The notes below the pieces were generated by a model. It was given only the letters and a program-made list of their open reading frames with translations. It ran no database searches and was not told the origin of the DNA. DNA of 64,000 nt, from the NCBI GenBank assembly GCA_905178155.1, contig CAJINV010000012.1, positions 1,678,492-1,742,491 on the forward strand, in the 5' to 3' direction. Source of the DNA: Amoebophrya sp. A120. Lineage: Eukaryota > Protista > Dinoflagellata. Positions 1,482 to 61,249 of this stretch are shown here, piece after piece (positions within the stretch are counted from its first letter, which is position 1; every line of letters starts with the position of its first letter). The position numbers and the translations under genes are program-made.

Positions 1482-2742
1482 TATCCTGAGGAAAAACGTA
1501 CCCACACCAGAGTTGTAATGCAGATTTGCAAAGACAGGAACATTTGCAATGCGCATCGCCAGGAGAGGCATTTTTAGTCGCGTTTTGGAATTTGTAATGC
1601 TGTAAACAGGATGAGCAGATGGATTTCTGATGCAGCTGGCCTTGCGAACCTGCACTACACTACGGACTGCAACTTGTGATGTGTGACCCCCAAAAGTTCT
1701 AGGCTTGTGTTGCAAAATCCCCATAGCACTGGCGCAATCAAGACGCAGGCAAGAACAACGTGCTGAAGCAGAGGACAAGAGCAGATAGTAAGAATATCAA
1801 AACAAGACGACAAAGCCTTTGATCCGCGAAATTGCTGGAGTGTGAATGTCGTGGACAGCGGAAGGGGTCTCTCACATTACAGGAAACGCCCACCGCCCCC
1901 AAATAGCTTAGTGATCCGAATGATGAATCAACTCGACTACTTAATTTTTACAATCGTTTTACCAGCCGCAGGCTTGCATCTGCGGCTACTGCTACTCTGC
2001 AAACGCCCGGCGTATTTTTCAAAAAAAACATGATCTGCCTCGCTGCAACCGGGGTTAGGACGTACCTCATTCAGGGCGGGCGGTAGCTAAATGCAGACCT
2101 GTGCGGGCTTATGTTTTCTGAAGCGCGCACACAGTCACTAGCGTAACGCAATAGCTTAATCATTTTTGACCGTTTTACGAACTTCGTCGCAAAAGTCCGG
2201 GGCTGCTTCCTCCCGCAGTAAATAGAAGGGTTTAGGTGTTTAGGGTTTTCCGATTCAGAAAAAAATGAAGCTCTTCGTCGACGTGGAAAAAACTGGATCG
2301 GACGTGTGCCGCTGCTACCGGCTCGACACGTAGAAAACGAATTTCGCGCGTTGTGCGGGAGTAGCTACCCCTCCCCTACTTCGGGTTGTAGTTGCCATTG
2401 GCGTCATTGATTGCGGTCGACAATATCCTCGTCCCGATGATTTCCTTCTTTGGGTTTGTGTATGGTGAATAGGAGCTTGCTCCTGATTGGTGCCGCGGTG
2501 TCGGAGGTTTTGCAGCATTCACGCACAGACTGCATTTGTGGAAACGGAGGGGGGGTGTGGGACCCCCATCAAGTCGTCGCGGCGCGAAGCCGCAAATCCC
2601 TGGTCCTCGTTCACCATCAGAAGTGTTCGACCGGTGGGGCGCTCCACTGAAACTGAAACTGAATTTTAGAGGGGGCCTAGCAAAAAAAAAATAAAAAAAT
2701 ACCCATCTTGACTCTGGTGCGGGGATGTTTTTACTCAGGATA
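1482..2742. mobile_element. Introner family C (non-canonical intron) containing a nested ~1-kb insert
   Basis: TIR TATCCTGAG/CTCAGGATA, DR CGTCC; body is the reverse complement of 59838-60116. Confidence 0.85.
1725..2701 (+). mobile_element. A-tailed insertion nested in an introner
   Basis: Absent from sister copy 59838-60116; flanked by CCCAT duplication (1720-1724/2702-2706); ends in an A-rich tail. Confidence 0.7.
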
Positions 2743-2837
2743 CGTCCTGGCGCTCTCTCCTTTTCGAAAGCCAATCCGGTGGTACTGCTCTCCGCATACG
2801 CGAGTAGCAATATGGAAGAAGTAGAGGGCTGATTTGA

Positions 2838-3057
2838 TATAAGAGTGCACAACCCCCCTTCCCCCTCAATTGTGTGGCATTAGCAGCAATACAAACACCC
2901 GCACGCGTGGAGCCCATGCACGACAAATTTACATACGCAATGTAGTACTGTTTGAGCTTCCAGAATTTGTTATGCAAGCAGTGCCACAAGGCACCGATTC
3001 TTGGATTTGGGATTTTGCATGACAAATCAGGGGGAGGGGGAGTTGTGCGCTGTCATA
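2838..3057. mobile_element. Introner family B
   Basis: TIR TATAAGAGTGCACAAC/GTTGTGCGCTGTCATA; DR TTTGA. Confidence 0.85.
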
Positions 3058-3133
3058 TTTGAAGCAAATCGCGGCCCAAGCGGTACGGGACGCCATGAGC
3101 GTGACGCCCGCGCAACTGTTCCAGGAGCACGTC

Positions 3134-3369
3134 TATCAAATGCAAATATGTTTGGGTCTGGAAGATAGAAGTAGAACTTGTGATGCTGCATTTGGATTCC
3201 AAAGAAATCAGCATGGTGAGCAGCAAAGGGAATGTAAATTTTTGCTACGCGGAGAGTGCATTTGTCATGCGGAGCCCTCAAAAAAAGTTGTGATGCTAGG
3301 ACTTGCGTCACAGACTTCACGGGTCATGCAAAATGTGCATGACAAACCGCGACATATTTGCAATGCATA
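3134..3369. mobile_element. Introner family A2
   Basis: TAT..TGCAAATATGT TIR; DR ACGTC; removal gives EHVQTW. Confidence 0.85.
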
Positions 3370-3475
3370 ACGTCCAGACGTGGGCGGAGCTGTGGAAGTC
3401 TGGCGTAGAGATCGAGGGCGAAGAGGAAATCGAGAAGACCGCGATGGCGGGTCTCTATTGGCTGCTCCAGCACTA

Positions 3476-3735
3476 TATGGCTTGCATATATGTCTGGGTC
3501 TGGAAGAGCCAAACTTGTGATGCTGAATTTGGATGCTAACAAAATCTGTATTGCATGAGCAGCAAGAGGAGTCAAACTTGGCTACGCGGAGAGGGCATTT
3601 GTCATGCAGGATGCGCATCGATAGGCGCTCAAAAAATCTGTGATGCTATGGCATACATCAGAAACATCATGGATCATGGAAAATGTGCATAACAAACTTC
3701 TCCTCTTCCAGACCCAGACCTTTTTACATTTGATA
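3476..3735. mobile_element. Introner family A2
   Basis: GTCTGGGTCTGGAAG/CTTCCAGACCCAGAC TIR; DR CACTA. Confidence 0.85.
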
Positions 3736-4020
3736 CACTATCGGGCCGACACCTACTGGTCCAGCTCCCCCGGCGGAATTGCGACTAACAGCTACAACGG
3801 CCATGTGTTTTGGGACACGGAGCTGTGGATGTTTCCCCCGCTGCTCCTTTGGCACCCGGGGATCGCCAAGGCGGCGCTGCAGTACCGTTTGAACACGGTG
3901 CCGGGGGCGCGGGCGCGGGCGAAACTCGGGAACGACCCCTGGCGGAGTGGGGAGCGCGCGCTGCAGGGTTACAGCACGAACGGGGTCCGTTTCAGCTGGG
4001 AATCTGCCATCACGGGGAAC

Positions 4021-4166
4021 TATGCATTGCAAAAGTATCGTACTCGTATTGCAGTCATGCGTGATCTTAAGGTCAATCAGCATTACAACCTTTATCTCTC
4101 ATGCTGAGGAAATTTGTAATGCATTTATATATACGAGTACGATTTACGATACTTTTGCAATTCATA
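4021..4166. mobile_element. Introner family A
   Basis: TATGCATTGCAAAAGTATCGTA TIR; DR GGAAC. Confidence 0.85.
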
Positions 4167-4229
4167 GGAACGAGCAGACACCGCCGGGGTTCGATACGGG
4201 CGCGGCGGAAATCCACAACACAGGCGATG

Positions 4230-4419
4230 TATGCATTGCAAATGTAAGTATCGTAGCTACTCGTACTGATTGCAGATACGCATGACAAATCTACTCTTCC
4301 GTTTCAAGCGAAAAAATCACCATGACATGACAAATTCCGTTCGTCATGCTATAGACAATTTGTGTTGCAATTTTACCTACGGGTGCCTGCTGGTACGGTC
4401 CTTTTTGCAAAAATGCATA
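4230..4419. mobile_element. Introner family A (diverged)
   Basis: TATGCATT/AATGCATA ends; DR CGATG/CGTTG; removal gives GDVAF. Confidence 0.8.
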
Positions 4420-4478
4420 CGTTGTCGCTTTCGAAGCGGATCAATACTACAAGTTGACGCGCGACTTGGACTTCTTGA

Positions 4479-4697
4479 TATAAAAGTGCGCAACTCCCCC
4501 TCCTCCTCATTTGTATAGCATGAACGGCAATACAAGCATCAGCAAGAATACCGGTTTTGCATGACAAATTCGCACTGGATTAAATAGTGCTTTTTCGGCT
4601 TCCAGGATTTGTCACGCAAACAGTGCTACAAGGCAGCAGCTGGATTTGGGATTTTTGCATTACAAATGAGGAGGAGGGGGAGTTGTGAAGTTTCATA
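4479..4697. mobile_element. Introner family B
   Basis: CAACTCCCCCTCCTCCTCATTTG TIR; DR CTTGA. Confidence 0.85.
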
Positions 4698-5115
4698 CTT
4701 GAACAGTGGCGGCTACAAGGATCTGATCGAGGGCACGGGGCAATTTTGGTCCGAGTATGTCCGATGGGAGGGCGCCGCCGCTCGGGTGCTGAACGTCGTC
4801 CCGCCCGACGAGGAGGCGGGGTACCAGGATGATTCGATATTTACCAATGCCATTGCGGAAGAAAACATGCGGCTGGCAGTGTACTACATGGACCTCCATG
4901 ACAGGAGAGGAAAGTTCCGACTTGATCCCGCCCCAGACAGTGCGACGTTCAGGGAAAAGTTTGAGAGAACCATCGCCGGGCTGCAGAAGACGTATCCCAC
5001 GCTGTACGACAAAAACCGCGACGCCCACTACGAATACGCCGGCTAACAGTGGGGTAGCAGGGTGAAGCAAGCGGACGTCGTGTTGCTCGGGTTTCCCTTG
5101 ACCAAACCGATGGAT

Positions 5116-5304
5116 TATCCTGCGCAAAACCAAAAGTTATATCGTACTAGTACAAAGACAAACTCAAACCGCATGAGCAAGTTCTTCAGCATGAGAAATG
5201 GAAATTTGCAATTTGGATTTGACTTAAGATAGGAGATTTCCAATGCATGACTGCATTTAATAATAGTGCCTACCACGACTGCGATACAACTTTCGCAATG
5301 CATA
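5116..5304. mobile_element. Introner family A (diverged)
   Basis: TAT...ATA ends; DR TGGAT/TGGAA; frame restored on removal. Confidence 0.75.
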
Positions 5305-5433
5305 TGGAAACGCGCTACACGTTTCGGAACGACTTACTTGAGGCTGAAAAGGTCTATAACCCGGAGGCACCCTGCATGACGCACTCCATCCAGATGATCG
5401 GGTGGCTGCAGTTGAAGATGCGGAAAAAGTGCG

Positions 5434-5644
5434 TATGACGGTGCACAACTCCCCCTCCCCCTCATTTGTATAGCATTAAGGGCAATACAAGCATCAGCAA
5501 GATTGCAGGTCTTGCATGACAAATTTGCACTGGATTGTAGTGCTATTTGGGCTGCCAGAACTTGTCATGCAAACAGTGCTAAGAGGCACAGGGTCGATTG
5601 GGTATTTTGCATGACAAATGAGGCGGGAGTTGTGCACTATCATA
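5434..5644. mobile_element. Introner family B
   Basis: TATGACGGTGCACAACTCCC TIR; DR GTGCG. Confidence 0.85.
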
Positions 5645-5718
5645 GTGCGCGGCCCAAATCGAAAAGTCTTTTGAAAACGCTTACGGGCCGTTCCGCGTCT
5701 GGACGGAGTACCCCCGTG

Positions 5719-5879
5719 TATCCTGCGCAAAAGTATCGTACTCGTACTAGTAATTGCATTCATGCATTACAAATTATCTCTTTCTCAAGGCAAACCAGCA
5801 TTACAAATCGAATTTGTAATGCTGTGCTAATTTGTAATGCATTTTTACGAGTACGAATACGATACTTTTGCAATCCATA
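5719..5879. mobile_element. Introner family A
   Basis: GCAAAAGTATCGTA TIR; DR CCGTG; removal gives WTEYPRGGATNF. Confidence 0.85.
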
Positions 5880-6381
5880 CCGTGGGGGCGCCACCAACTT
5901 CATCACGGGTACCGGCGGCTTCTTGCAAACGGTGAGTTTCGGCCTGGGCGGATTGCGGATCCGAGAAAACGGTCTGCTGCTGGAGCCCGGGCTGGTGCGG
6001 AACATGAAGCGGGTGGTGTTGCGGGGAATTTTCTTCCTGAAATGTCGGTGGCGGATTGAGTTCAGCGATGCGGAATTTTTCATCACGGTCATGGAATGCG
6101 GTGCGGATCAGGACCAAGCTGTGATACCTTCCGACGCGGACTTCTATTCCACAAACGACAGGGCGAAGACCAGCACACCGCTTGGCTTAGTCGCCCGGTG
6201 GAACGAGATGGAATCGAATTCGAATACGGATGAGGCGTCTGGAAGTCCTCGTCGTGTGAAGATCTATCAAAAGCAGCACTTTTTCGAACTCCGAAGGGAC
6301 CTGCGGCTAAACAATTTTCCAAACGAGAACCAACGGAGGAATTACCGCCAGGTCTTACTCCAGCACGAACAAGATGCCCCG

Positions 6382-6625
6382 TATGGCGTTCTCACACGTT
6401 ACATTCTCAACTGCTCCATGAATTTTTCATGAAGGAATGGCAAACGTGAAAGGGGAGACCTAGCGCGTCTTGCATGACAGATTTAGCACAGATTCTCAGC
6501 CTGTTTGGCTCTTCGAGAATTTGTCATGCGAAGGAGCTTGTTGAAGTTGATCATGTAGCTATTGACGGCAATTTCGCATGACAAATCGTGCCACAGTTGA
6601 GAATGGAACATTTGAGAGTCCCATA
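6382..6625. mobile_element. Introner family D
   Basis: TATGG..CTCACACGTTACATTCTCAAC TIR; DR CCCCG. Confidence 0.8.
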
Positions 6626-6703
6626 CCCCGGCGTGGCCGGATGTAGGAGGGATTGCAGAAAAGAAAATCTGCACTCTCGAGGAAATAGACACGGACTACT
6701 TTG

Positions 6704-6864
6704 TATGAACTGCAAAAGTATCGCACTCGTAATAATTGCAGTCATGCATTAGAGATCTTTTTCTTGAGGCTAATCCGCATGACAAATTTTATTTCTCATG
6801 CTGAGGAAATGTAATGCATTTTTTTATAGATACGCATATGAATGCGATACTTTTGCAGTTCATA
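6704..6864. mobile_element. Introner family A
   Basis: Perfect TATGAACTGCAAAAGTATCGCA TIR; DR CTTTG. Confidence 0.9.
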
Positions 6865-8351
6865 CTTTGGCGGTGACATGGGCATCTGGGAAACGGCCGC
6901 GACCGCAGAGGAGTGTCGGCAAATCTGCGAACAAAACGCCGAATGCGAGCTGTTCACGTTTTTGAGAGGCCAGGTGAGAAACAATTGCCTGTTCAAACGC
7001 GGGCTCGGAGCGGAAAAGAGGTATAATAGCGACACGGCCAGTGGGCGTTGCGTGTTTGAAAAGGTGGATTACGAACTGGTGCAGGAGCCACCGGCGGCAG
7101 CGGAGGGTTTTTCTCCAAGTAGTGCAAGCAGCAATGGAAATAATGTTCCGGGACTAGAAGCCTCCGCGGCAGGTTTTTTGGAAAAGAGAAAAATGGAAGT
7201 AGATCGTGTTGTTGAAAATACGGGCGAGCGGATGGCTTCGCAGAGTGGTGATGATGATGAAAAGCGCAAAGAAATAGGACTAGCAGAAGATGCAATCAAG
7301 TTAGAGGACGGAAATAGTGCGCACGTCGAGGAGAAAAGGAATCAAAGCGAACAGGACCGGATGCTTCCCGCGGTGGGCGCAGCTAGAAGAATAAAAAGCC
7401 GTCCTCCGCTAAACAATCTTCCCTCGGCCGTGCAAGTAGCAGACATGACCGCGCCTTCATATCAAGCAGAAATTTGAAGAAGTGATATGATTTTGATTTT
7501 AGAAGTAAAGTGTTATGCATAACAAGAACTAAGAAAACACAACCTGGTCGTCGGCTATGTCGTGGGATCAACGTTGTTCGGGTGCGTTGAGAACTTCGAG
7601 AGCTGCACCAAGTAAGAACCAGATCTACAACTCCTCACCCTTGTGGATTGATTTAGCACTACTGACATAATCACTCAAGTCAACCTTGTGCGCCTCGTAC
7701 TTGATGAGTTCGCTGCAGCTCGAACAACAGCTCTGTAGACTTCGGACGAGAGAAGAGTGAAGTCGAGGTAAAGGGATTCAGACTCTTCGACAAAACCCTG
7801 CGAGTAAGAGGAAAACCGTAAATTACCGTATCGACTCTTGTTTTTTGTCATTTTCATACAAATAAGCTTTTCGTCGCACCCGCCGAGGACTGCAGCGAAA
7901 TAATAAAAGTTGTAAAGCTACCAAGACTACATATACGGAGCGACAAACTCACGTTCATACAAGATGTTTGTTGCCGCGCGTCAACATACAAACATCACCA
8001 GGACGCGTCCAGGTTGATGTGTGGCTCCCTCAAATAGCTGGCGCGGAGGCGGGGAGCACGAAGTAGAATCTCTTCAACACCACGTCCCTGCTGCAAGAGG
8101 GTCGTCCTCGTGATCGGAGCGGCTGCAGCGGCTGCATTCTTGCACGACAGCCAAAGCGGCCGGAGCGGCTGCACTCTTGCACGACACACACATCAAAGAA
8201 AATATCTACTACAACCACCTCAGTACAACTGCGCCGGTTGTCGCCGACAAAGATTCTCCGAGAAAGAATCTCAATCTGTACAACAGTCGACCACGCGACG
8301 TCCTCACATCTCCCTCGGACCATGACGGGTGGACTTCTTGGGTCGAGGAAG

Positions 8352-11300
8352 ATGGACAAGGACAACAAAAGGCCACTGCCGGTGACCCCTGCCCAGCACT
8401 CCCGCGGAACAAGCGGCGGAACGACCTGGGGTCGGAGCACCGCATCCACATCCTCCGGAACCAGAAGTCGCCCTAGAAGCTCGACCACTACTTCCACTTC
8501 ATGCTGCGGCCGCTGTTGGTGGTCCAGAAAGAACTACATCGTCAAGAACACCAAGACGGCTCGGCTCCTTTCCTCTTCTATCACCCTGCAGGTGTTCTTT
8601 CTCCTGCAGTCGTTCTATCTGGTTCAGCATGCGGATCTTGTACACGGAAGACGACGCATGCTGCGTCACGAGAACGACCGGGGGAAAGCAAAAGAGGAAA
8701 TTGGGTACGAGTTCCGCGTATCCTGTGCACAAGCATCGTACTCGTAGTAATCGCAGTTATGCATAACAAATCGCCTCCCTAAGCTAAAACAGCATGACAA
8801 ATTCCATTCGTCATGCTAAGGAAATTTGGAAATGCGATTTATACTTCTAGTACGATGCTTTTGTATTTCATACCACGAGAAGAGCGACCTCTTCCCGCTA
8901 GGCAAGGTGGTTGCAGGTTTGTGGTCTTGGGTTTTCGGCTCGGGTACTTCTACGGTGGAGGAAATGTACGGTTTTAATGTTTCTACGAACGGCACGGGCA
9001 CCAACGCGACCCCAAGCAACAGCACGGCGCCGAATGATACAAGTACGAACATTTCTTCCAACGACACGACAGGGCCCATGGTTGGCGCTACAGCGAGCGG
9101 GGACTACATAGCGGCTGTTGGCGCCAACAATTTGGCAACTAGTCCGACGTACGCTGGTGCTACTACCAATGCCGGTCATCTTCCGAAGAACGCGGGCATC
9201 TTCACTGCTGGGAACATGACGAGTGGAGGTCGGACCAATGGTACCATGATGCCTCTCGCCGCGAGCAGCAGTACAAACATCACAACCCCGGCGGTTTGGG
9301 GCGAGCAAGATGCCATTCGTCGTGCGACGAACAATAGTACTGGCGCCACTTCCAATTGGACCACAACGTCGAATCATACCGCCATCAATTGGACCACCAC
9401 GATCAATTGCACATCCTCTACAGCGGCAGTGTCAGGTATTTTCAGTGAAATTCTGTACCATTTTTTATTTTTTCGACTCTCAGGTTGCTGCACTGCTACT
9501 GGTCAGCACGTCTTGATGTTTGACGCGTTTGTTTTTATTTTTTCAGTGCGCGGTGCTGGCATTTGCATTTTGATTTTTTCGTTGCAAATATGAATCGGTA
9601 TGTTCCGAACTGAGGCACTAGATCAAAACTGTTATTGAAGAAATCCTACGTTCTTGAACAGGGCCGGATCCGGCCCCGCCGCAAGACGATGGCTATCTGT
9701 CCTGGGTTGGCGTAAATCTGGTAAAAACGAGCAGCAACACGAGCGTCACACATGATCAACATCCGGAAGATATGAAGATTCTCACGACGGACACCACTGC
9801 AACACCATTACCACTTGTCGTGACCTCCGGGGAACAGCAAATGCGGGAGGAAGCTGCGAACACAACAATGGTGGTGACGCTGAACAAACTACACCGTGAC
9901 CACGAGCAGTCGTTCACAACGCCAACGAATTCAACTTCCCCAAACACGAGTGCTGCTGCGACAGACGAGACGGTGGGAAAATCAGCGACGAAACGGCACG
10001 CGTCTCTGTTGCCCATCATGACAAAAGAAGTTGAAGATCCTGAAGTTGAAGTTCCTGTGGTACTACGAGATGCTTCTGTTTTAAGCAGCGAAGTAGAAGA
10101 GACACCTGCCTCCACGCAAGAAAACTCGGGTCTGGATGAGGACCACTCTGTCAGTGAAGACATCGACAAACCGAGGCCGGTCGGGGACGAATCTTCGCAT
10201 TATTTGTCCACGCAGGCAAAACTGTTCGAAACATCTTCTGTCTTCCCCAAAAATCTCCCTGATGTACCAAATTCCACGTCGTCCAGTGCTTCAGTGGACG
10301 AATTTCGCTTCATTTCGCCGCACCATGTTGTCTCACAACAAGATGAGGAATCGATTTACTCCTTCCTCGAGTTGAGCCAGGAACTAAATCATCACAACGT
10401 GGTTGCTGCAGAAGAAGATGCTGCGGTAGCAGGACGACAGGAGGGTGTGAAGACCGGTCTTCCACCTGCTGATGCTTCTGTTCGTGCTGGTTTAGACTAC
10501 GTTCCTAGCAAAAAACAAAAATCGAAAACGAGCGCAGCTTCCAAACTTCCACTGCCGTTACATGACGAATCGCCAGCGACCGCGGGAAATGCAGAAGATG
10601 AACACCCGATCGAAGATCCAGAAGAGTTTGACGCCACCTCTGCGCTGTCACAAAGCGGGGCGGAAATTTTCGCGGGGGAGAAGCACGTCGAACAAGGAGG
10701 ACACTCTGGTGAGCGGTCGGAGTACCATACAACTGGAGCAACAGCATCCGAAAATGGAGCTTCCGACAGCGTCGCAGGCGCGGCTGCACATGATCAGTCG
10801 CAAGAAGATGAAGCCGGGCAGAACGTCGTCGGGGTGGAAAGTATTTCGTCTCTGGACGAGCATGCCGAGCTTCCTCCTAGAAGTGACGGTCATGCTGGTG
10901 AAGCTGCAGAAGGGAAGAACGCGGAATCGGACGGTAGTGCTGTGATTGAAGAACCGAAGGACCACGACCACGACGACGAGAAAACTGGCTTTATTACCCC
11001 TGCTTCGGAAGGGAAAGAAGAAACTACCGTGCCCGGCGGAGAACGGGTGGAACGAGGTGCGGCGGAGAAGATGCAGGAGCAAACGAAAGGCGAAGTGGTG
11101 GTGGAGCGTAGCAGCTCGTCCGCAGTTGAGGTGAAACCTGCAGCACTTAGTGTGGCGCCTCCTCCCGGCGGTCCTGGCATATCGAGTCTCGTCTGGGGTG
11201 TGGGGGGTGGTTCTGCTCCCCGGCCTGCTTATGCCGAGTCTCGGGGTGAAGCACTTCCACTTTCTCCGACAACCGGCGGTGCTGCTGCGCTTGGCGTAGT

Positions 11301-49900: not shown

Positions 49901-52900
49901 CACAGGATATGCAAAAAAAACTGGAGCAGCAGCTCGAGGACTGGAGAGACCAGACGCTTTTCGAAGAATTTCAAGAAGGGCTAGTGCTTGCCGAGGGAAC
50001 GGGAAGGATAACGCAAAAACAAAGAGAAAGCTGTGCGACGAAGTTGTCACGCGGCGAGGACAGAAAGGTGGGCTATTCCGATCTAGTCCTTGGGCCGCAG
50101 CTGTGCGGGGCGAGTACTGGTGCTGGGGTGGAAATGGGTCGACGTTTAGAAGGTGTGTCTGGTTCAACAGCAGCAGCAAGAGCAACATCAACCAAAAACG
50201 AAGACGACACGACGACTACTTCAGCTGAACAGGATGACTCACTGCCGCACGACGACAAGTCCCCGCCGCGCAAGGCTTCTCCGCCGTCGGCGGAAGAGCA
50301 AAGGCTATTAAAGCTGTGGCAAACCATCTACTGTCCGTCCCCGTTGTTTTTTCGACAAAACACATCAGCCTGCGCGGAGGTCACAGCTGCGCTGCATCAA
50401 AAGTCATCTCAGACAGATCATGAAAGAGCAGGCTCTGGTGGCTCTAGATCATCCCCCTCCTCAGCGTCGACCTGTGATGTTAGTGGTTCAAGCGGAAGCT
50501 CGCGTGAACAGGCAGGAACGACAAGTACTAGAGAGCACCCAGCGAAGGCTTATTCGGAATCGGAGGTGCAGGAAAAACAAAGTTTGTTTGATGCCGACGT
50601 ACCAATGAAAGTAGGGCAAGTAGAAGAAGGACGACAGCCACCACCAGCACCATCAACAGCACAGCCGCAGCGCAGCGCCTGTGAAAAGACCACAGCGTCC
50701 TCTTCTCAAAGACCACCGCAGGAGAAGATCTTGCCATGCCAACACCGCTACATGTCGGAAGCGTTTGAAAAGTCGAAGCAGTTGAAGATTTTCCTGACCC
50801 GCATGGCAAATCGCCTCCGCATGTGGCACTTTCTCGGTCTCCAGGCGACTGTAAACGAGAACGATGTATGCCCGATCTGCTTGGAACCGGTGCTGATAAG
50901 CCGCGGCGGTGGGAAGATGCAGAAGGATAAGACGCATGACAAAGTGACAGACTCTTCCTCATGCAGCAATGGTGCCGAGGATGATATCTCCGAGCTTCTC
51001 GTGTCGTGTGCCTCCAGACCGGTCGCGCACGTGATGCACGCCAGCTGCTATGTGCAGCATGGGTACGAGCTCGGGGGCAAAAAACAACTCTACCGGAAAC
51101 GGAGTCGTCGGTTTCTCCGGGACTGCCCGGTCTGTCGCGAGTCGAAGTTCCCGCGGATGAGAGGACGCGTACGAGAAAATGACGTGGCAAATAAAGCCGG
51201 TCCACACATCTTTAATGATGCGAAGGTGCCTGCTGACGACAGCGAGGACAAGAAAAAGACTTCTCTATCAAGAACCTCAGAAAGAGAAAGAAGGTCGGAG
51301 GTGCAAGAAAACCTTAACACCAGCACGGAGAAGAATAACCAGGCCGCCAATAGTTGTGTCTTCGAGTCCGACTCGAGTTTGCTAACCGCGGCGTTGAAAC
51401 GGGCTCTGTGTTGCAATCGGCGGGTGGCTCTGTCAAATTTCGAGAAGAAAAAGCTGCTGCTGCTGCAGCAAGCAAGGCTGGAGAAGGAGCAGGCGCAAGC
51501 AAAGCTGGCAAGGGACGAGCGGGCGGTGAAACAAGAAAAGGAACTACACGAAGATCATACTGATGCTCTTTCGTCGGAGCGAGAGCGTGATCTTGAGAAC
51601 CGCCCCGCTTCAGCCTCCTTTTCGTCCCGGTTATTTTCGCCCAATAATTATGCGAGCAATGTGTGGCGCCTGAGCAGCAGCGCAGCTAGCAGCTCTGGAT
51701 CTGCAGCTACAACAACCTCCGCGATGAACAACGTCGAACTGGATCCACCAGCATCCGAAACCATCCTCCTCCGCACCCGCAGCACCGCCGCTGAAGAAGT
51801 GGCGACGCGGTGGAATAACGTGATGGAGGTGTTTCGCAACGCACTCTCGACAATTGCTATCCAAGAAAAAAACTGTGTTAGTGTAAACTTTCTTTGGCTG
51901 ACAGCATCTGCTCTACATGACAGAGAAAACCTGTCATGCGTGGCTTACAAGGGAAAACACACAGGAAAAGAAGACCGCATGGTTGTCTGGCATGACAGGT
52001 GTAAACAGTTTTGCATTTTCTGCATTACAGAGCTACACTTAGACAGTTTTTTTCTTGCATAATTGCGGACGAAGACAGCGAAGACGAGGATAGCTGGCTG
52101 GAAAGCTGGAGCTCCTTTCTCGACGTCGTTCCGCTGGTATGACAGTGCACGACTCCCGCTCGTCCCCCTCATTTGTCATGCAAAATACCGAATCGTCCAC
52201 ATCTTGCGCTTGCCTTTAAGCACTCTGCGCATGACAAGTTTTGGACGCCCAAACGCCCAAACAGGACTACATTCCACATTTACGGACTTGTCATACGAAA
52301 GCTACGTTTGTGGCATTGCTTCTGTTCCTGTTGCTGCTCATGCTACAGTACAAATGAGGAGGAGGGGGAGTTGTGCACTCTCATAGCTGGCGCCTGCTGC
52401 TGCTCCGAGCGAGGGAACAAGATCTACAGTCCGCGGAGGTGCAACGGCGAATGTAATGCCATCGAATAACTTGTTGAACTACAATTTGAATGATTTGGTT
52501 TTTCAGCAACTGCAGGACAGTCTTCTAAACCACAATCGTAACGACCACACTAACATAAACATGCCAACGAACGCAGCTGACTTGGACGAAACCGCCGGGA
52601 TTTGGGGCGGTTTGGCCCTGATGCCGTTCGCGGACGCGATTTCTAATCGAGGGACAGCACAGGAACAGGACATGCCGTGGTACCAATTCGGCGGCCCGCC
52701 GGTGCCATATCCTGTGCAAAAGTATCGTACTCGTATTGCAGTCATGCATTACAAATTTTTTTCTGAAGCTAAATCCGCATATAGATTTCTCATGCTGAGG
52801 AAATTTCTAATGCATTTATACGAGTGTATCGAAGAAAAAAACACCATCACAGTCACAAAATTCAAATTTTCAAAATTTTGCAGGAGCTGAACAAAAAATT

Positions 52901-54845
52901 ATTTTGATTTTCAGGTAAGAAAATACTTTTCAATTCTCGAATGCGAATGTATTTATTTTTGTGTTAGCTATTTGGTTATGTCAAAAATGGCGGTTTGAAT
53001 AAGCTAGTTAAGAAAGAGTTCTGAAGACAAACGATCAGCTTCCAGCAGACGAAGCTTGGTAGATGGGGTTGTCGCCCTCGTCTGGCCCCAGGTGGGGCCA
53101 GAGGGCGACAACCCACACTACCACTGTTCGTCTGCTGGAAGCTGAACGATTGTCTTCAGAAATCTCTCTTCTTAACTAGCTAGCTTACCATGCGAGCTTA
53201 ACTTAATCATGCGAGCTGCTTCGGCAGTTTTTACCGTCCTCTTGCTATCACAATCACTCCCTTTGGCTGCAGCGGATGTCGTGCAGTCGATCGTGGACCA
53301 TAATGCAGAGGCTTTCAGCCCCGAAACCAATGCGGCTGGCGGAACGGCGAAAGGTATCTACTTATATTGCTTTTTTAACAACGGGCTCATTTGGTGCTTG
53401 CGCCTCGAGGTCTCTTGGTGCTTGCACCTCGGGGTTTAGGGTCGGAACGTTCCCAGCACCGCTGGAAGCACTGAACCTGAAGGGCGTGCACGCCTGGAAG
53501 GATCCGAGCATGGCGCTTTACTAGCGCCTTTTCAACGTTTACCTTCATCCTCCTTTTTGTTTCTGCTGTTTTCCTTTTCTCGGGCCCTACTGGCACCAAG
53601 CAGTTTCTTTCTGCGGCTCCCGCCCTTCCTGCTGTCGGTTTTGTCCTATTTTAGTTTTTTTCATATGTGCACATGACGATGTGTACATGATCATGCGTAC
53701 CGCGGCCTTCTCCTTTTTCTGCACGGGCAGCTTCCCTCCAACACATCTCCCCTCCACGTCTCCGTCACGTCCCGGATGCCGACCCGGTCCAGCAGCCGAC
53801 GCAGGGGTTTTAGGGTTTAGGCTTTTAGGGTTCTCCTATTTTGATCTTAACTAGCTAGCTTACCGCCAATAGCCAATATCATAAATCATCTGCTTCAAAA
53901 CTCAACATTCAAAACCAGATACAACAGGTTCGGGAGTGCCGCGAAAGTCCAACGAAATTTTAATTTTGATGGTCAAAAATTTTGAAAATTTGAATTTTGT
54001 GATTGTGATGGTGTTTTTTTCTTCGATAGAGTGCGATACTTTTGCAATGCATATGCCACGACCGGCGCAACAAGGTGCTGGTGGTTCCACCACTGTAGTT
54101 CCCCCAAACCGACCAGTGACTTTGACCACAACCAATCTTCCGGATGACCAAGAACACAATTCCTCCTCGTGGAGCTACACCCAGGTCAGGCGAGGCTTGT
54201 TGAACCGGCTAGGATTTAGCCGTGGCAATGTCAATGCTGCTCAGGTAGAGGATGAAGCTAGAAGTACGGCTAGCAGTACAACTCGGAACGAGCGGAGACG
54301 AGCAGGCAGTTCGCCGGAAGTAGATGGACCTGCTCCCTCTCATCGCGAACTCATTATGCTACTCAACTTGAACCACGGCACTGCTGCGGCGGGGACAGGA
54401 GTTGCACCAAGCGACAGCCCGAGAAACTACTACCAAAATGAAAATGTTTTTGACTCTGCATCTTCTGCTGCTTCTCCGCACCCACTGCAGCCGATGCCAA
54501 TTCCGGTCCGGGTCCGGTTGGAACATGCCTTGGTTCCGGATGACGTGTTATGCTCTGCAAAAATGTGGCGCTCGTAGTACTTACTCGTTGCAATTCTGCA
54601 TTGCAAATCGTATTCAGATAGGAAAATCAGCAAGACAAACTCCGATTGGTTTTTGAAAAAGTTTGTCATGCGATGTTTACTAGCTGCGATATTTTTGCAA
54701 TGCATACGTACGAGCCCTGATCCAGGAAATTCATTCCGATGACGTGCGGTATCTCTGGCTCGCAGTGGAGGAAGCGCCAATGGTGTCGGTCGGATGCCTG
54801 GCGTTTTTGACGGTCCTACTAGAAAAAGCGTGGAGCCCGATGTAG
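46946..54845 (+). CDS. Large low-complexity RING-H2 finger protein (putative E3 ligase); 5 introners; start uncertain
   Basis: CPICLEP..CASRPVAHVMHASC..CPVCR at ~50869-51138; exons join in frame across five introners to TAG at 54843-54845. Confidence 0.75.
49757..49909. mobile_element. Introner family A
   Basis: TGCAAAAGTATCG TIR; DR TGCAA; joins the 955-aa and 717-aa ORFs. Confidence 0.9.
51858..52061. mobile_element. Introner family E
   Basis: TATCCAAGAAAAAAACTGT TIR; DR ATTGC. Confidence 0.85.
52138..52385. mobile_element. Introner family B
   Basis: TATGACAGTGCAC TIR; DR GCTGG. Confidence 0.85.
52708..54053. mobile_element. Introner family A with nested 1.2-kb TIR element
   Basis: TGCAAAAGTATCG TIR; DR TGCCA. 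Confidence 0.85.
52827..54028. mobile_element. 1.2-kb non-autonomous TIR element (TAT...ATA, 5-bp TSD)
   Basis: ~50-bp TIR TATCGAAGAAAAAAACACCATCAC...; TSD GAGTG; internal 180-bp hairpin. Confidence 0.85.
54549..54706. mobile_element. Introner (family A-like)
   Basis: TATGC..TGCAAAAAT TIR; DR CGTGT/CGTAC. Confidence 0.75.
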
Positions 54846-56172
54846 GAAAATGTGACTGAGAAAACTTCTGGTCTCATGAAAACAACGACCCGGAAAGAAC
54901 TCAAACTCTGTCTGTACTAAGGTGATACATATGTTTGTTGACATAGCCTTCTGATGATGCTTCATCATGCATGGCATATTGATCTGCTCCGAGCCGGAAA
55001 ATGATTTTCGTGAGGACGAGGATGTTTTTCCATAGCATACGCCATTCGAATGGTTTACCAACCCACCTGCCGGCGCGGTGTGAAGGAACAAGCACGCGCG
55101 ATGCAACCGCGTGAAGTGCTGCCGGTTGTACGAAAATAGGAACATTGTTTCATGGGGAATAAAAGGGGAGTTGTCATTGAGAGTAGTTTCTATCAAGAAT
55201 AAATGCGCAATAATGTTGCTGCGACCACTACAAGAACTTGCTGTTTCAAACATGACACATAACACATATTGTGTAGACATAGATTTCAATTTCTGGCGTT
55301 TTGATCGACTTTGACAGTTTTTAAAAGAGTTAGCGTACGAGATCAACAACGCGATTGGATGAAGCATGGAAAATACTTAAAATGTACGACTGAAGTAGAG
55401 ATACCAGTCTCAATTGCAATTGCAAATCGAAATCTGGATACATAGGTAGCACGACCAGTAAGACCACGAGGCTATCGAATGATTTAGATTTTGTTTTGTG
55501 TCGTTCCTGCCATCATGCTAGTTTTTTGATACGTCCGCAAAAAATATTTCTGGTGCTGCAAAAAGGAAAACGCTGGCACTGCTTCAGAATGGTTAATACA
55601 GTATGTAAAACCTCCACTGGTTCTCCTTCCTATCCCCGCGTCCTCTTCACAATATCTCCATAAGCTTGGCGCTCTGGGAAAAGGATGTAACTGACCAGTC
55701 TGAATGTCCATCATCTGGATGATCGATTGATAGATTTACAAATGCATCAATTCAATATCCCCCAGCCCTGCATCGGGCTTGCATAAAAGTGCACGTGGTC
55801 GTGTATATCGCGTTGGATCTTTCGTTTCTTCAGCATAGGCTGGCAGGAGTGTTTCAAAAGGTTTTTGCTCCTATTAGGACGGATGTAGTCGTGTTCCAAT
55901 TCTACCTAATAGAGCGTCTCTGTTTCTTCAAAAACGAGGGAGTTGTACTAGTGAGCCACGGAAAAAGACTATCGAGTGGGACAGATAAATCAAAATTTTT
56001 GCCGCTTCTTCCAAGCGAGCCATTTCTTTGAGTGGGCGATGAAGTTAGTATAGTGGTCCTACCAAGCAGATAAACTCCTTCAAAACGACATCAGAGCTGT
56101 ATCTTGTCGAAAAAGTAGAATCCATCCGCTGCTGAAGCTAGAGCTACTCGTAACAGAAAACTACCTCACAAG

Positions 56173-59100
56173 ATGTTTTGCGGTGGTGCCTCCGGTCCAT
56201 ATACGACGGATTTGCCGCAGCCAAAGCCGTGTCGCGAAGGCTGGAAGCAGACGGTCGATCGCCAGCCGCCGTATGGTGTGTACCAACCGGGGACGGCAAA
56301 CAAGGACCTGGGGGTACGGAAATGGAAAAACATAGAACAGAAGCCGTCATGTGTTGTCATGCAGGTGTCTGCAGCAGTGTTACGTTTTGTCATGCAGGGA
56401 CTGCATTTGATTTCGATGCTTCTTGACAAGACTTTTCACTCCATACTCTCTCGGTCCCATCCTGTACAACAGCGCGTACAAGGACACATGGAAGTTGCCG
56501 ACAGGTATCAGATAGATCATGAACTACCCGATCTTCACACTGAAAAGCTGTCATGCGGAAACAGCATGTTGCAAAGATCTTGTGATCTTCATGTTGAAGA
56601 TCCACTAGCTGCAAAATTAAGTAAGGTAACTAGCATCACATCGAAATCACTATATCAGGCCCCGTCTCCGGCCACAAGAATATCATCGAGTGCTGGCACA
56701 ACGCCTGCCTGGACTTATGAACTGCAAAAGCATCGTACTAGTATAAGTCGCATGACAAATTTCCACAGCATGAGAAATAAAATTTGTAATGCGGATTTAA
56801 CTTCAGAGAGAAACTTGTAATGCATGACTGCGATTACTACGAGTACGATACTTTTGCAATGCATAGGACGGCAAGGACGGCAACGCCATGGGGTATATGC
56901 AGTGCAAATATGTCTAGGTTATTTGGAAGGTTGCGCACTTGTCAAGCTTAGTCCGGATCGTATAAAAATTTGTGTTGCAGGATTGCCAAATGTTGTTCAC
57001 TTTTGACCAAGTTGGGAGAGCTTTTCTCATGCAGGATAGGCATGATCACAGAGGTCTCGCAGAGTCTGTCATGCTAGGTCCTGCATTGCAGCCTGTCATG
57101 GGTTATGGACAACCTGCATGACAAGTCTCGCAACCTGCAGACCCAGACATATTTGCATTTGATAGGCTACCGCAAGCTGATCGACATCGTGTACGAAAAG
57201 GACCCGATATGCGAAGAAAAAAGTGTTACCGTTACACATTGTGTTGCAGGCCAAGCAAGACAGACAATCTCTGTCATGCCGGATATGCATCATGGGAGCC
57301 TAGTTTGTTCATAGATACGCGTTTTCCCTTGTTATGATCTCTGCATTGCAAGCTTTTCCTCTCATGCAGAGAAATAAATCTGTGTTGCTAAATTGTTGAC
57401 AACAAATGTGTAATTGTAAAACACTTTCTTCCTTGGATACCCAAAGGACGGCAAAGAATACGAAAAGCTGCACCTCGCGAACGAGCTCACCTACGTCACC
57501 TACACGCAGTTGCTCGACCGTGTGAAATATCAAGTGCAAAAGTATCGCACTCGTATAAATGCATTACAAATTTTCCCAGCATGAGAAATGAAATTTGTAA
57601 TGCGGATTTCCCTTAACGCCTAAATTTGTAATGCATAACTGCAATTGGTACGAGTGCGATACTTTTGCACAGGACATGAAGGCCTTCACCATGGGTTTGA
57701 AGGACTTCACTGGTGAGGACTTCTTCGCGAACAAAAACTCCCGCGGCGTCATTTTATGAGAGTGCACAACCCCCCCTCACGACCCTCATTTCTAATGCAA
57801 AATACCGAACCCACCTCTTGCCTCTAAGCACTGTACGCATGACAAGTTTTGGACGCCCAATCAGGACTACAATCCATGTCCGGATTTATTGTCATGCAAA
57901 AGCTACATTCATCCTCATCGTGGCATTCGCATTCCTTCTGTTGCTGCTCATGCTATACAAATGCGGGGGACGGGGAGTTGTGCACTGTCATACACTTTCG
58001 CGGACACGCAGATGGACTGGATGTGCTCCGTATGGATTGCAAAACTGTCTGGGTCTGGAAGATTGCAACTTGTCATGGTAAATCTGAAGCATGCAAAAAT
58101 CTGTGTTGCATGAGTGCCAAAAGCTGCAAACTTTTGAACGAGTTGGAAGGAAGTTTCTCATGCAGGATAGGCATGGCAGAGACCTCGCAGAGTCTGTCAT
58201 GCTAAGTCCCGCATTCCAGACCTCATGGGTCATGGAAAATCTGCATGGCAAGTCCGCAGCTTACTTTCCAGACCCAGACACTTTTATTTTTGATACTCCG
58301 CGCTCGGGTTCTTTTCCCAGGCACTCCCGATCGTGACGGTTTACTCGACTTTGGGGGAGGAGGGACTGAAGTTCGCGCTGACGCAAACCTCCGCGGAATT
58401 CGTCGTCACCGACGCGAAACTGGCCAAGGTGCTGGCCAAGGTGCTGCCCTCGGTGAAATCCACGATGAAGTACGTGGTTTTACTCGGCGACGCGAAGAAG
58501 TACTGCAGTGCGGAGGTCATTATCAACTGCAAATATGTCCGGGTCTGAAAACTTGGCATGCATGTCAGTGAAAAATAAGCACACTGCAATGCACCGCCAA
58601 GCATGACAGATTTTTTCGTGGCTCCTCTGTGTTGTGGATTCTGCATGAGATGAAGCTGCGTTTTTGGATGGCAGACGCAAGGAGCTGCTCTACTTCGTGG
58701 CCCCGCAATGCAGATCTCGGAGTCATGCCAGACTAGCATGACACTCTTGCTCTTCTAGACCCTGACATATTGGCAGTTGATAGTCATGAAGACGTTATCC
58801 GAAAACGTCAAAGTCGGAATTTTCAACGAACTGGTAGAGATCGGTGCGCCAAAGATCATATGCAAATTGCAAAAGTATCGTACTAGTAGGAATTATTGCA
58901 TATACAAATTTTATTCTCAGAAATAACACAAATGGAATTTGTGATACTGATTCAGCTACTAAAGTAGATTTGTCATGCGAGGCTGCAATTTTTACTACGA
59001 GTATCTGATACTGTTGCAGTGCATAGATCAGCGAATGGGCGATTAAACCGGTGAGTTTGGAGGAAACGGCAGTGATCATGTACACCTCGGGGACCACCGG

Positions 59101-61182
59101 GAATCCGAAGGGCGTCGTCATCTCGCACGGCAATGTCGCTGCTCTAATTGCGGCGGGGGAGCAGGTCTTCGCGGGGATGGTGGAAGCGGGGGATACGGTG
59201 CTGGCGTACTTGCCCTTGGCGCACATCATGGAGATCGCGAGTAGAATGGAAGTGATGGCTTCACCTGCTATGCTCGGCATGCATAATTTGCATATTACAA
59301 TACTGGCAGATCATGTTCCTTTACTTCTGTCCCAATAAGTCTGGTGTACTATAAATGCGAGAAACGCATCAAATAAACCAAAAGGTGAAGTGACCTGTAT
59401 GTCGACCGGAGTGACGCTCTGCTACGCGAACCCGCACACATTATCCGCGACCGGTGTGAAGCTGAAAATACCGGAATCGAAGGGAGACTTCGAGGTTTCG
59501 AGGCCGCACAGCCTGCTGTTTGCGCCAGCGGTGTTGGAAAAAGCGTACAACGGGTTGAACTTGCTCTTTGCGAGTGGGATTAAGAAGAAGATTTTCGACG
59601 GTATACATAGTGTAGTTAGATAGTCGTGTAGTTTGTAATGCGACAACACACGACCATGGATGTTGCGCGTCTGATTTAAGTATTTCCTTTTCAGTTTTCT
59701 GTCATGCATACCGCACTAGCTACAAATCACTGCATATTACCGTTGTGGATGATTTAGATTCGCATTACAACGAACAGCCGCCGTCCGCAACGGGAAAGCG
59801 AAGTTCCAAGCCTCCGGCGTGACCCGCGACGAGTGCTTATCCTAATGAAAAACGTCCCCACCCCAGAGTCAAGATGGGGATTTTGCAACACAAACGTTGG
59901 AGTTTTGGGAGCCACGCATGACAAATTGCTAGCTGTAGTGTAGTGCAGTTTAGAAAGGGAAGTCGCATTACAAATCCATCTGCTTATCCTGTTTACAGCA
60001 TTACAAGTTCCAAAACACGATCGGAATTGCCTATCATGGGGATGCGCATTACAAATGCTCTTGCGCTTGCAGATCTGCATGACAACTCTGGGGTGGGGAC
60101 GTTTTTACATAGGATAGTGCTACTTGGGTACCACCGGCTGCTTTCCCAACATTGTCTGCAAGAAGATCCGGGCCCGGTTCGGCGGCCGACTGAAGGCGGT
60201 GTTGACCGGTTCTGCCCCGTTATCGAAGGACTTGATGTGCTTTTTCCAGACGATTTTGGGGATTCCGGTGCGACAGGGATACGGATTGACGGAAACGTGT
60301 GCGGTGTCGTGCATCGCCTTCTGGTGCGACAACACGCCCGCGAGCGTCGGGCCGCCAGCGATGGCGTCGGTATAATGATGGTGTGAGTTGTTGTAATGCA
60401 GAATCAGAATCTCGGTCTGTGTTTGTCATGCGGGAATGAGACTAGGTATTGAAGGCGTGTCATACTCAACTACATGCAAAATAAGGTCATCCGGCTCCGT
60501 GACTGGGAGGAGGGCAACTACAAAACGTCCGACGAGCAGGACCCAAATATCGGCAAACCGCGGGGGGAGGTGTTAATTGGCGGTCCGATGGTTACGCAGG
60601 GGTACTTCATCAAAAACCCATCCGATCCGGACGAAGAGGACCAGGCCTTGATGTATGACTCGCTCAAACGTTACAATCTCAAACGTTACAATAGAGTCTG
60701 GAATTTGTGTTGCATGATGAGCATGACAGACTCGCACAGCGTTCCACCTTTTGCAATAGAAACTTTGCCAGATTGTAGGGGGGTTTGGGGCTCAGGAACT
60801 TGTCATGCGCAATCCTATGAGAGTTGATGGCGAGAGGACTATGCACTCTTGCGTCACAGATTTCCATACTCTATTCGTAACGTTTGAGATTGCAACACCT
60901 GAGCGGGTTACATGATGCAGAAAAACAAGGAGGAATACCTGGAGGTCGACGGATACCGGTGGTTATCGTGTGCAAAAGCATCGTACTCGTACTAATCGCA
61001 GTCATGCAAAACAAATTTCATTTTCAAGCTAAATCAGCATGACAAATTCCGTTGGTCATGCTGAGCTAATTTGTGTTGCAATACTACGAGTACGATACTT
61101 TTGCAGTTCATAGTGGTTTTGCTCCGGCGATATTGGCCAGATCTCCCAGCACGGGACCTTGCAAATCGTGGACAGGAAGAAG
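56173..61182 (+). CDS. Long-chain acyl-CoA synthetase (AMP-binding family); 3' end lies beyond the window
   Basis: Spliced motifs VIFADTQMDWM, VTVYSTLGEEG, IMYTSGTTGNPKGV, YLPLAHIME, FGGRLKAVLTGSAPLS, QGYGLTET, PRGEVLIGGP, WFCSGDIG, IVDRKK; 11 introners plus GT-AG introns (~56314-56658, 59241-59384, 59601-59778, 60370-60486, from 61183). Confidence 0.92.
56716..56865. mobile_element. Introner family A
   Basis: TIR; DR GGACT/GGACG; body antisense to 6704-6864. Confidence 0.85.
56896..57164. mobile_element. Introner family A2
   Basis: TGCAAATATGTCT TIR; DR GGGTA/GGCTA. Confidence 0.85.
57208..57439. mobile_element. Introner family E
   Basis: TAT..AAAGTGTT..TTACACATT TIR; DR CCCGA/CCCAA. Confidence 0.8.
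57528..57676. mobile_element. Introner family A
   Basis: GTGCAAAAGTATCGCACTCGTA TIR (right end ACA); DR TGAAA/TGAAG. Confidence 0.85.
57755..57992. mobile_element. Introner family B
   Basis: TATGA.AGTGCACAAC TIR; DR CATTT/CACTT. Confidence 0.85.
58031..58295. mobile_element. Introner family A2
   Basis: TGTCTGGGTCTGGAA TIR; DR CTCCG. Confidence 0.85.
58521..58782. mobile_element. Introner family A2
   Basis: TATCAACTGC.AATATGTC TIR; DR GTCAT. Confidence 0.85.
58859..59025. mobile_element. Introner family A
   Basis: TATGCA..TGCAA TIR; DR GATCA. Confidence 0.85.
59838..60116. mobile_element. Introner family C
   Basis: TATCCTA..AAAAACGTCCCCACCCCAGAGT TIR; DR GTGCT. Confidence 0.9.
60654..60912. 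mobile_element. Introner family D
   Basis: CAATCTCAAACGTTAC IR (right end ACA); DR TGATG. Confidence 0.8.
60964..61112. mobile_element. Introner family A
   Basis: TGCAAAAG.ATCGTACTCGTA TIR; DR GTGGT; removal gives YRWFCSGDIG. Confidence 0.9.
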
Positions 61183-61249
61183 GTACTTACTCAATCGATA
61201 CTACAGATTTTTTGAATTTTGCCTGGTTGTAGTACACGCGATGGCGCAA

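Follow-up and report, generated by a model that had tools for sequence, protein, structure and literature searches.

Transposon-like elements in the coding exons of the window

We analyzed a 64,000-nucleotide stretch of the Amoebophrya sp. A120 genome (contig CAJINV010000012.1, positions 1,678,492 to 1,742,491), referred to here as the window. Its plus strand carries a gene for a GH65 protein with a PAN domain, a RING-like gene, a long-chain acyl-CoA synthetase (ACSL) gene, and a paralogous pair without Pfam matches, genes A (~8070-15800) and B (~36440-45520). These genes are interrupted by elements that have terminal inverted repeats (TIRs), start with TAT, mostly end with ATA, and are flanked by 5-bp direct repeats. 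All of the elements that were tested were skipped in transcript-like contigs, and the cuts fell in one fixed register.

The catalogue of 35 elements (1482-61112; Table 1) was hand-curated from inverted-repeat scans and an end profile, in which A occupied positions 11, 12, and 13 in 37, 44, and 40 of 50 seed ends, respectively. A first-pass annotation of the window had listed 33 elements of about 145-290 bp with TAT...ATA ends, TIRs, and 5-bp direct repeats; the elements proved to be real, but the count and some of the particulars changed. All 35 started with TAT and 32 ended with ATA, the other ends being ACA (57676 and 60912) and AGA (15311). Thirty were 146-287 bp long, and five were longer (420, 421, 1202, 1261, and 1346 bp). 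The TIRs stood, as did the 5-bp repeats, but the repeat was exact in only 21 elements, with one mismatch in 11 and two mismatches in 3.

A scan for exact 5-bp repeats flanking inverted repeats yielded 37 pairs, compared to 8-13 pairs in five simulated sequences. When the scan was fixed on TAT, TGT, or TCT ends and a TIR score of at least 8, there were 29 pairs (26 in the catalogue and 3 outside of it), and ten simulations produced 0-1 each. The earlier division into six families was a fair one: at a score of at least 50 (background maximum, 33), the elements formed five multi-member clusters (13, 9, 7, 2, and 2 members) and 2 singletons, and the cluster of 7 broke up at higher thresholds. Exon-like reading frames hosted 34 of the 35 elements; the claim that all lie in coding exons failed for 52827-54028, which is nested inside element 52708-54053. 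Not one of the 34 non-nested elements fell in the ~15.1 kb of DNA marked by eye as intergenic (P of ~6e-6 under uniform insertion).

The family D element at 1482-2742 carries an insert of ~970 bp (1725-2695), which looks retroposed based on its A-rich tail and near-match 10-12-bp duplication; the insert also has TTTAGGG-like repeats in common with 52827-54028. Element 41283-41702 has a second ATA-GTCT end near 41463 and may be composite.

Reading frames of the host genes

With the elements removed, the ACSL gene was stop-free over the 603 amino acids (aa) that lie in the window and had a Pfam AMP-binding match. An ACSL exon was 100% identical to an annotated 742-aa protein (P0001) of Amoebophrya sp. 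A120, and the element-free model equaled P0001 across all 603 aa, so the public annotation already removes the ACSL elements. The RING-like gene also became stop-free (1933 aa). Its frame was intact, as stated in the first-pass annotation, but its protein had no Pfam match, and the RING call came from Cys/His spacing judged by eye. The further statement that the host open reading frames (ORFs) are otherwise intact did not extend to the GH65 gene. After removal of all 12 elements, this gene retained frame breaks at ~2822-2830 and near its start, as well as an in-frame TAA at 5044 where a Tyr was expected; it is either a pseudogene or the product of an assembly error. The public GH65 annotation (P0121) covers 3095-5043 only, a 291-aa middle piece spanning five elements. 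Genes A and B, which had been left unnamed, carry six elements.

Absence of the elements from transcript-like contigs

The transcript evidence came from assembled contigs of two runs of one study (X1 and X4), whose RNA status was a computational guess; none of the runs with matching sequence was recorded as RNA. The raw-read RNA runs contributed 0 reads (X9) and 4 reads (X10). In X1 and in X4, a single contig skipped 13 introns in ACSL positions 56150-60250, including nine of nine elements and three GT-AG introns. GT..AG ends were impossible in every allowed placement of the nine element cuts; among alternative placements, 56716 was readable as GA..AG and 58859 as AT..AG. Ends of the U2-type form GT/GC...AG occurred in none of the 35 elements in the window and in 3 of 162 oriented copies in related loci (described below). 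Contigs of a DNA run (X5) crossed element-exon borders at a depth of 36-48, versus 43 for the unique flanks. In the RING-like gene, where repeat noise masked the joints, the cuts were placed by the ends of contig pieces. One joint, 56837 to 57649 (X1 only, depth 12.8), connected one family A copy with another; we treated it as a repeat artifact and kept 13 of 14 rows.

A single cut register

We expressed each cut as k, the number of direct-repeat bases retained from the 5' copy. As shown by the five mismatched repeats, which permitted k values of 0-4, 3-5, 4-5, 0-4, and 3-6, the only value common to all was k = 4. In this register, the skipped piece is N-TAT...ATA-NNNN, with one cut 1 nucleotide (nt) before TAT and the other 4 nt after ATA. 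A contig piece of the RING-like gene ended at repeat base 4 (54547), and other contig pieces began four bases past ATA at 55044 and 42323 (leftmost placements). Genes A and B have independent insertions of two families at the same site, 3 bp apart. This pair permitted k values of 3 or 4, as did P0001.

Two joints had no repeat and zero ambiguity, namely, 56314-56449 (GT..CT) and 44093-44467 (TT..GC), and both were cut in the same frame. In each of the 14 joints, including the three GT-AG introns, a single register placed TA at +2/+3 together with A at -5. The informative joints were the five with mismatched repeats, the two without a repeat, and two plain GT-AG introns (59241 and 59601). Element 57528 has an AG one base downstream of the cut that is in frame and synonymous, yet this AG was unused; in the case of 56896, the AG of ATAG was unused. 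We conclude that skipping occurs in one fixed register, independent of the repeat and of AG. Since 1 nt plus 4 nt equals the 5-bp duplication, the exon is restored exactly. The first-pass annotation had proposed removal independent of canonical splice sites; neither G+1 nor the 3' AG was needed, consistent with this proposal, but U+2/A+3 and A-5 were common to the elements and the GT-AG introns of the same gene.

A hairpin flanked by a direct repeat is a known setting for template-switch artifacts of reverse transcriptase. It could be argued that the skips are such switches, or DNA-level excisions, and that the elements are not introns, given that the evidence consists of cDNA-derived contigs of guessed RNA status. 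We find this hardly credible: two zero-ambiguity joints lacked a repeat and one of them also lacked a hairpin, a single register suited all of the mismatched repeats, a conserved enzyme was readable only after all removals, and the DNA run contained the elements at near full depth.

The element class itself is already published, as the first-pass annotation had stated. Farhat et al. 2021 (PMC7789003) describe A120 introner elements with inverted repeats starting with TAT, 3-5-nt repeats, and 29,850 repeated introns, and they mention transposases as not found, "no clear splicing signature," and sites that vary relative to the hairpin; later reviews repeat this account (PMC11282704, PMC11453091, and PMC12787238). 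The elements in the window resemble that description in their inverted repeats (8-20 nt there), a TAT start followed by ~7 nt and As, a size of ~240 nt, repeated families, and RNA-supported non-GT-AG removal. Where that account has direct repeats of 3-5 nt across the border between exon and intron, the repeat here was 5 bp and was exact in 21 of 35 elements in the window and 195 of 264 in the loci. Unlike in that account, the register here was fixed and common to GT-AG introns, and the repeat was a 5-bp target duplication. The fixed register (1 before, 4 after) is new here. A sequence look-up for similar introns in other dinoflagellates found none. In the literature that we searched, neither a fixed register nor the position of a branch point was described for Amoebophrya; subscription papers were mostly beyond the search, and Fig. 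3 and S19-S25 of PMC7789003 may show part of it. The question addressed is how A120 removes the more than 60% of its introns that lack GT-AG, and a fixed register makes it directly testable.

Duplication of 5 bp on insertion

A pattern scan of one other assembly provided 154 related loci, in which the same families were present. One locus (L114) is an ACSL ortholog that lacks element 58521, with one GTCAT in its place, and shares element 58859. It also carries a family A copy that is missing from the window, where the site has one ACGCA; the comparison covered 489 bp. Because each empty orthologous site holds one 5-mer, the 5-bp repeat was made on insertion. Among 264 elements in the loci that were called without using the repeat, the 5-bp duplication was exact in 195, and duplications of 4 bp and 6 bp were each found once. 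The TIR is symmetric, so families are found in both orientations, and family A copies were oriented 58 versus 68 relative to the host. Thus, the elements are noncoding TIR transposons that insert into genes with a 5-bp duplication. The transposon-derived origin proposed in the first-pass annotation is supported.

No transposase or integrase was found among 48 of the 58 ORF pieces from the long inserts and 61183-64000, or among 115 of the 149 locus ORFs of at least 190 aa. A family A pattern gave 0 hits in viral contigs, and the window contained no Rfam match. The combination of TA..TA ends and a 5-bp duplication narrows the search for a mobilizer to integrase-like DDE enzymes. IS3EU/GingerRoot, IS481EU, and Ginger2 have similar TA..TA or TNT..AYA termini (PMC10045372 and PMC6839031); Ginger2 duplications are 4-5 bp, whereas those of IS3EU/GingerRoot are 6 bp and those of IS481EU are 4, 15, or 25 bp. 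The elements resemble these groups and match no single definition, which we regard as a lead only. An A120 introner family with TIRs and Copia/Gypsy-like ORFs (family 38) is described in PMC12130899. In the loci, the sole TAT..ATA element longer than 450 bp was a family F-like element of 815 bp (L035:4024-4838; TIR match of 19/20; 5-bp duplication).

Signals at the intron ends

A coding model oriented 228 of 289 copies. In these 228 copies, TIR bases 1, 2, and 3 had 1, 0, and 8 changes at the 5' end and 3, 4, and 2 changes at the 3' end, and the 5' T-A was more conserved than its 3' mirror (Fisher P = 0.015). A transposase would treat the two ends the same, which RNA processing need not do. 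Donor U+2 and a purine at +3 were found in 14 of 14 joints and in 227 and 228 of the 228 copies, respectively. The sole +2 change yielded G-C, a tolerated donor, and one of the two -7 changes was inside an AGGTG repeat offering GT..AG. The base preceding each cut was C in 49, G in 47, A in 44, and T in 22 of 162 copies, which gives no Y-R consensus. An apparent depletion of AG in the direct repeats of the window was refuted in 162 oriented copies (54 seen and ~47 expected).

Strong terminal stems were predicted in most young copies. Among 19 folded introns, the stem closed at U+2:A-5 with a probability of at least 0.6 in 9, and the end-duplex z was below -4 in 11. Such stems would suit an endonuclease and ligase, euglenid-like or tRNA-endonuclease-like, that acts independently of the spliceosome and cuts 1 nt before and 4 nt after the TIR hairpin stem. 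Free positions at +1, -1, and -2, the disregard of AG, and the lack of a detected U1 small nuclear RNA (snRNA) in A120 (PMC7789003) are also consistent with this idea. According to PMC11282704, euglenid nonconventional introns similarly lack GT-AG, have repeats resembling target-site duplications and a terminal hairpin that starts some distance inside the cuts, with the larger distance on the 3' side, and exit as circles without lariats. Their junctions are Y-R and their pairing starts at +4/-6 (+4 to +6 with -8 to -6), whereas here pairing starts at +2/-5 and no Y-R preference was seen. We consider the endonuclease unlikely because 44093-44467, whose ends are not predicted to pair (duplex z of 0.1), was cut in the same register, and because the hairpin-less GT-AG introns, none of the three with a strong predicted terminal stem, also have TA at +2/+3 and A at -5. 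Furthermore, the eight 5' changes at +4 were all uncompensated at -7, and the two ends differed in conservation.

The elements (9,839 bp) contained 70 exact copies of the motif TGTNATGC and the other introns (1,304 bp) contained 9, compared to 4 copies in 18,782 bp of coding DNA and 6 copies in 15,118 bp of intergenic DNA (~7 per kb versus 0.2-0.4 per kb). It occurred in both orientations. A putative protein that binds TGTNATGC might mark introns on the DNA and define them during transcription, with the spliceosome doing the chemistry. We strongly doubt this, since subterminal repeats are expected in transposons and the old introns may be decayed copies; in addition, 2 of 34 elements lacked the exact motif, and intron 59241-59384 was unmatched in a one-mismatch map.

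Proposed removal by a relaxed spliceosome

The presence of U+2/A+3 and A-5 in both the elements and the GT-AG introns favors one relaxed machinery over a separate one. We think it probable that a modified U2-type spliceosome removes the elements. It would ignore both the 3' AG and the base at +1 and would likely measure from a branch A. For A120, PMC7789003 reports U2, U4, U5, and U6 as well as 83 of 89 spliceosomal proteins. In the proposed mechanism, the sense TAT would provide U+2/A+3 of the donor site (all GT introns here read GTA), one of the As in the ATA at the antisense end (-7 or -5) would be the branch point, and the distance from this A would set the 3' cut. The RNA hairpin may help join the ends in young copies and would be dispensable. 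The mobilizer would be an integrase-like DDE transposase encoded elsewhere, which is the weakest step. We give about even chances to a fuller version, in which the spliceosome dropped G+1 and the 3' AG and reads N-U-A...A-N-N-N-N by ruler, with the 1 + 4 arrangement and the symmetric TIR making any TAT-ended transposon a perfect intron regardless of its site or orientation.

Several points weigh against the register rule or its spliceosomal explanation. The register is based on 14 joints and three contig ends from the contigs of the one study, and elements with exact repeats fit the rule by construction. Predicted minus-strand AG introns near 29104 and 30034 and a by-eye intron at 23271 lack A at -5; none is RNA supported, and minus-strand intron ends, which are not fixable by reading frame alone, were excluded from the counts. 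The end-asymmetry test comprised 18 events with model-based strand calls. Positions +1, -2, and -1 seem unconstrained (+1 was A in 53, G in 47, C in 31, and T in 31 of 162) and are more relaxed than in the Fritillaria pattern. AG was at the intron end in 0 of 35 elements in the window. Among the 228 copies, the final dinucleotide was only mildly enriched for AC (28 versus 14.8 expected) and AG (24 versus 16.1 expected). No G preference at +5 was seen in the oriented copies, and no 3' base was invariant among the 228 copies. The predicted terminal stem of most young copies would bury both proposed signals, and the lariat, the branch point, and the snRNA dependence are themselves predictions. 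Finally, the branch A of Entamoeba invadens is at -8 (bioRxiv 2022.06.08.495308), and one at -5 would leave a shorter distance to the 3' cut.

Parallels for the spliceosomal proposal can be found in other reports. In Fritillaria, a U2-type spliceosome processes transposon-derived non-GT-AG introns, and those of F. borealis likewise have a TIR and a target duplication that supplies the 3' site (PMC11282704 and PMC13326754). Fritillaria prefers AG-AC/AG-AT and keeps U1, whereas A120 introns are nearly free at +1, -2, and -1 and U1 snRNA is undetected. In E. invadens, the 3' cut lies at a near-constant distance from the branch A and AG is kept; here, the candidate A is at -7 or -5 and there is no AG.

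If the ruler reading is true, the absence of a splice signature in tens of thousands of introns would be one rule masked by direct-repeat ambiguity. If removal is spliceosomal, an intron can do without its terminal dinucleotides, although exon ligation is usually thought to require them, and this would explain how a transposon family could invade coding DNA at almost no cost.

Coordinates and other features of the window

Table 1. Host genes, elements, and other introns (DR, direct repeat)
Feature	Position	Strand	Remarks
GH65 + PAN-domain gene	217..7477	+	host; two frame breaks, in-frame TAA (5044)
RING-like gene	46946..55083	+	host; stop-free model of 1933 aa
ACSL gene	56173..61182	+	host; first 603/742 aa inside window
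Family D element, GH65	1482..2742	+	DR CGTCC; ~970-bp poly(A)-tailed insert (~1725-2695)
Family C element, GH65	2838..3057	+	DR TTTGA
Family B element, GH65	3134..3369	+	DR ACGTC; missing from annotated P0121
Family B element, GH65	3476..3735	+	DR CACTA; checked against P0121
Family A element, GH65	4021..4166	+	DR GGAAC; checked against P0121
Family A element, GH65	4230..4419	+	DR CGATG/CGTTG; P0121 requires cut at DR base 3 at least
Family C element, GH65	4479..4697	+	DR CTTGA; checked against P0121
Family A element, GH65	5116..5304	+	DR TGGAT/TGGAA
Family C element, GH65	5434..5644	+	DR GTGCG
Family A element, GH65	5719..5879	+	DR CCGTG
Family C/F element, GH65 C-terminal part	6382..6625	+	DR CCCCG
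Family A element, upstream of PAN domain	6704..6864	+	DR CTTTG; TIR match 20/20
Family A element, gene A	8719..8872	+	DR CCGCG/CCACG; paralog requires cut at base 3 at least
Family B element, gene A	12623..12892	+	DR TGTGG/TCCGG
Family B element, gene A	14060..14320	+	DR GCCCC/GTCCC
Family B element, gene A	15025..15311	+	end AGA; DR CACTG/CACCG
Family B element (421 bp), gene B	36748..37168	+	3 bp from paralogous site of 8719; paralog requires cut at base 4 at most
Singleton element (420 bp), gene B	41283..41702	+	DR GAGTC/GTCTC
Decayed intron TT..GC, gene B	44093..44467	+	no DR, no predicted end hairpin; same register, zero ambiguity
Family A element, RING-like gene	49757..49909	+	DR TGCAA
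Family E element, RING-like gene	51858..52061	+	DR ATTGC
Family C element, RING-like gene	52138..52385	+	DR GCTGG
Family A element, RING-like gene, hosts nested element	52708..54053	+	DR TGCCA; transcript-like contig piece begins 54054
Nested TAT..ATA element, 1202 bp	52827..54028	.	53-bp TIR (98%), DR GAGTG, inner 180-bp palindrome, no Pfam match
Family A element, RING-like gene	54549..54706	+	DR CGTGT/CGTAC; contig piece stops at DR base 4 (54547)
Decayed intron GT..CC ending ATA+4	54842..55043	+	5' end inferred from record lengths
Decayed intron GT..CT, ACSL	56314..56449	+	no DR; ends ATA+4; zero ambiguity
GT-AG intron, element architecture G-TAT...ATA-TCAG	56505..56658	+	contig joint
Family A element, ACSL	56716..56865	+	DR GGACT/GGACG; cut after base 0-4
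Family B element, ACSL	56896..57164	+	DR GGGTA/GGCTA; cut after base 3-5; AG of ATAG unused
Family E element, ACSL	57208..57439	+	DR CCCGA/CCCAA; cut after base 4-5
Family A element, ACSL	57528..57676	+	end ACA; DR TGAAA/TGAAG; cut after base 0-4; in-frame AG at base 5 unused
Family C element, ACSL	57755..57992	+	DR CATTT/CACTT; cut after base 3-6
Family B element, ACSL	58031..58295	+	DR CTCCG
Family B element, ACSL	58521..58782	+	DR GTCAT; orthologous locus L114 empty, single GTCAT
Family A element, ACSL	58859..59025	+	DR GATCA; common to L114
GT-AG intron without element features	59241..59384	+	U+2/A+3 and A-5
GT-AG intron without element features	59601..59777	+	U+2/A+3 and A-5
Family D element, ACSL	59838..60116	+	DR GTGCT
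Family C/F element, ACSL	60654..60912	+	end ACA; DR TGATG; missing from annotated P0001
Family A element, ACSL	60964..61112	+	DR GTGGT; checked against P0001

At the right end of the window, an ACSL intron that opens with GT at 61183 extends past the window, which lacks the C-terminal 139 aa of the annotated protein. The region 61183-64000 has two purine-rich frames, one of 408 aa (61216-62439) and one of 599 aa (62204-64000). Neither had a convincing Pfam match, and the region is perhaps a large inserted element. On the minus strand, 20200-30600 contains unnamed genes with many short introns that bear the TGTNATGC motif, and three of the minus-strand introns (22989-23200, 26710-26812, and 27502-27707) look like decayed elements and have no direct repeats.

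Two groups of repeats were also noted. Units of ~350 bp, direct and inverted, occur at 17550-18000 and 33830-36100, and one copy adjoins the N gap at 17161-17549. CTAA-rich, short tandem-like repeats are present in GC-rich intergenic DNA at 31560-31880 and 28130-28530; element pairs called at 31597-31769 were false and were produced by short tandem-like repeats.

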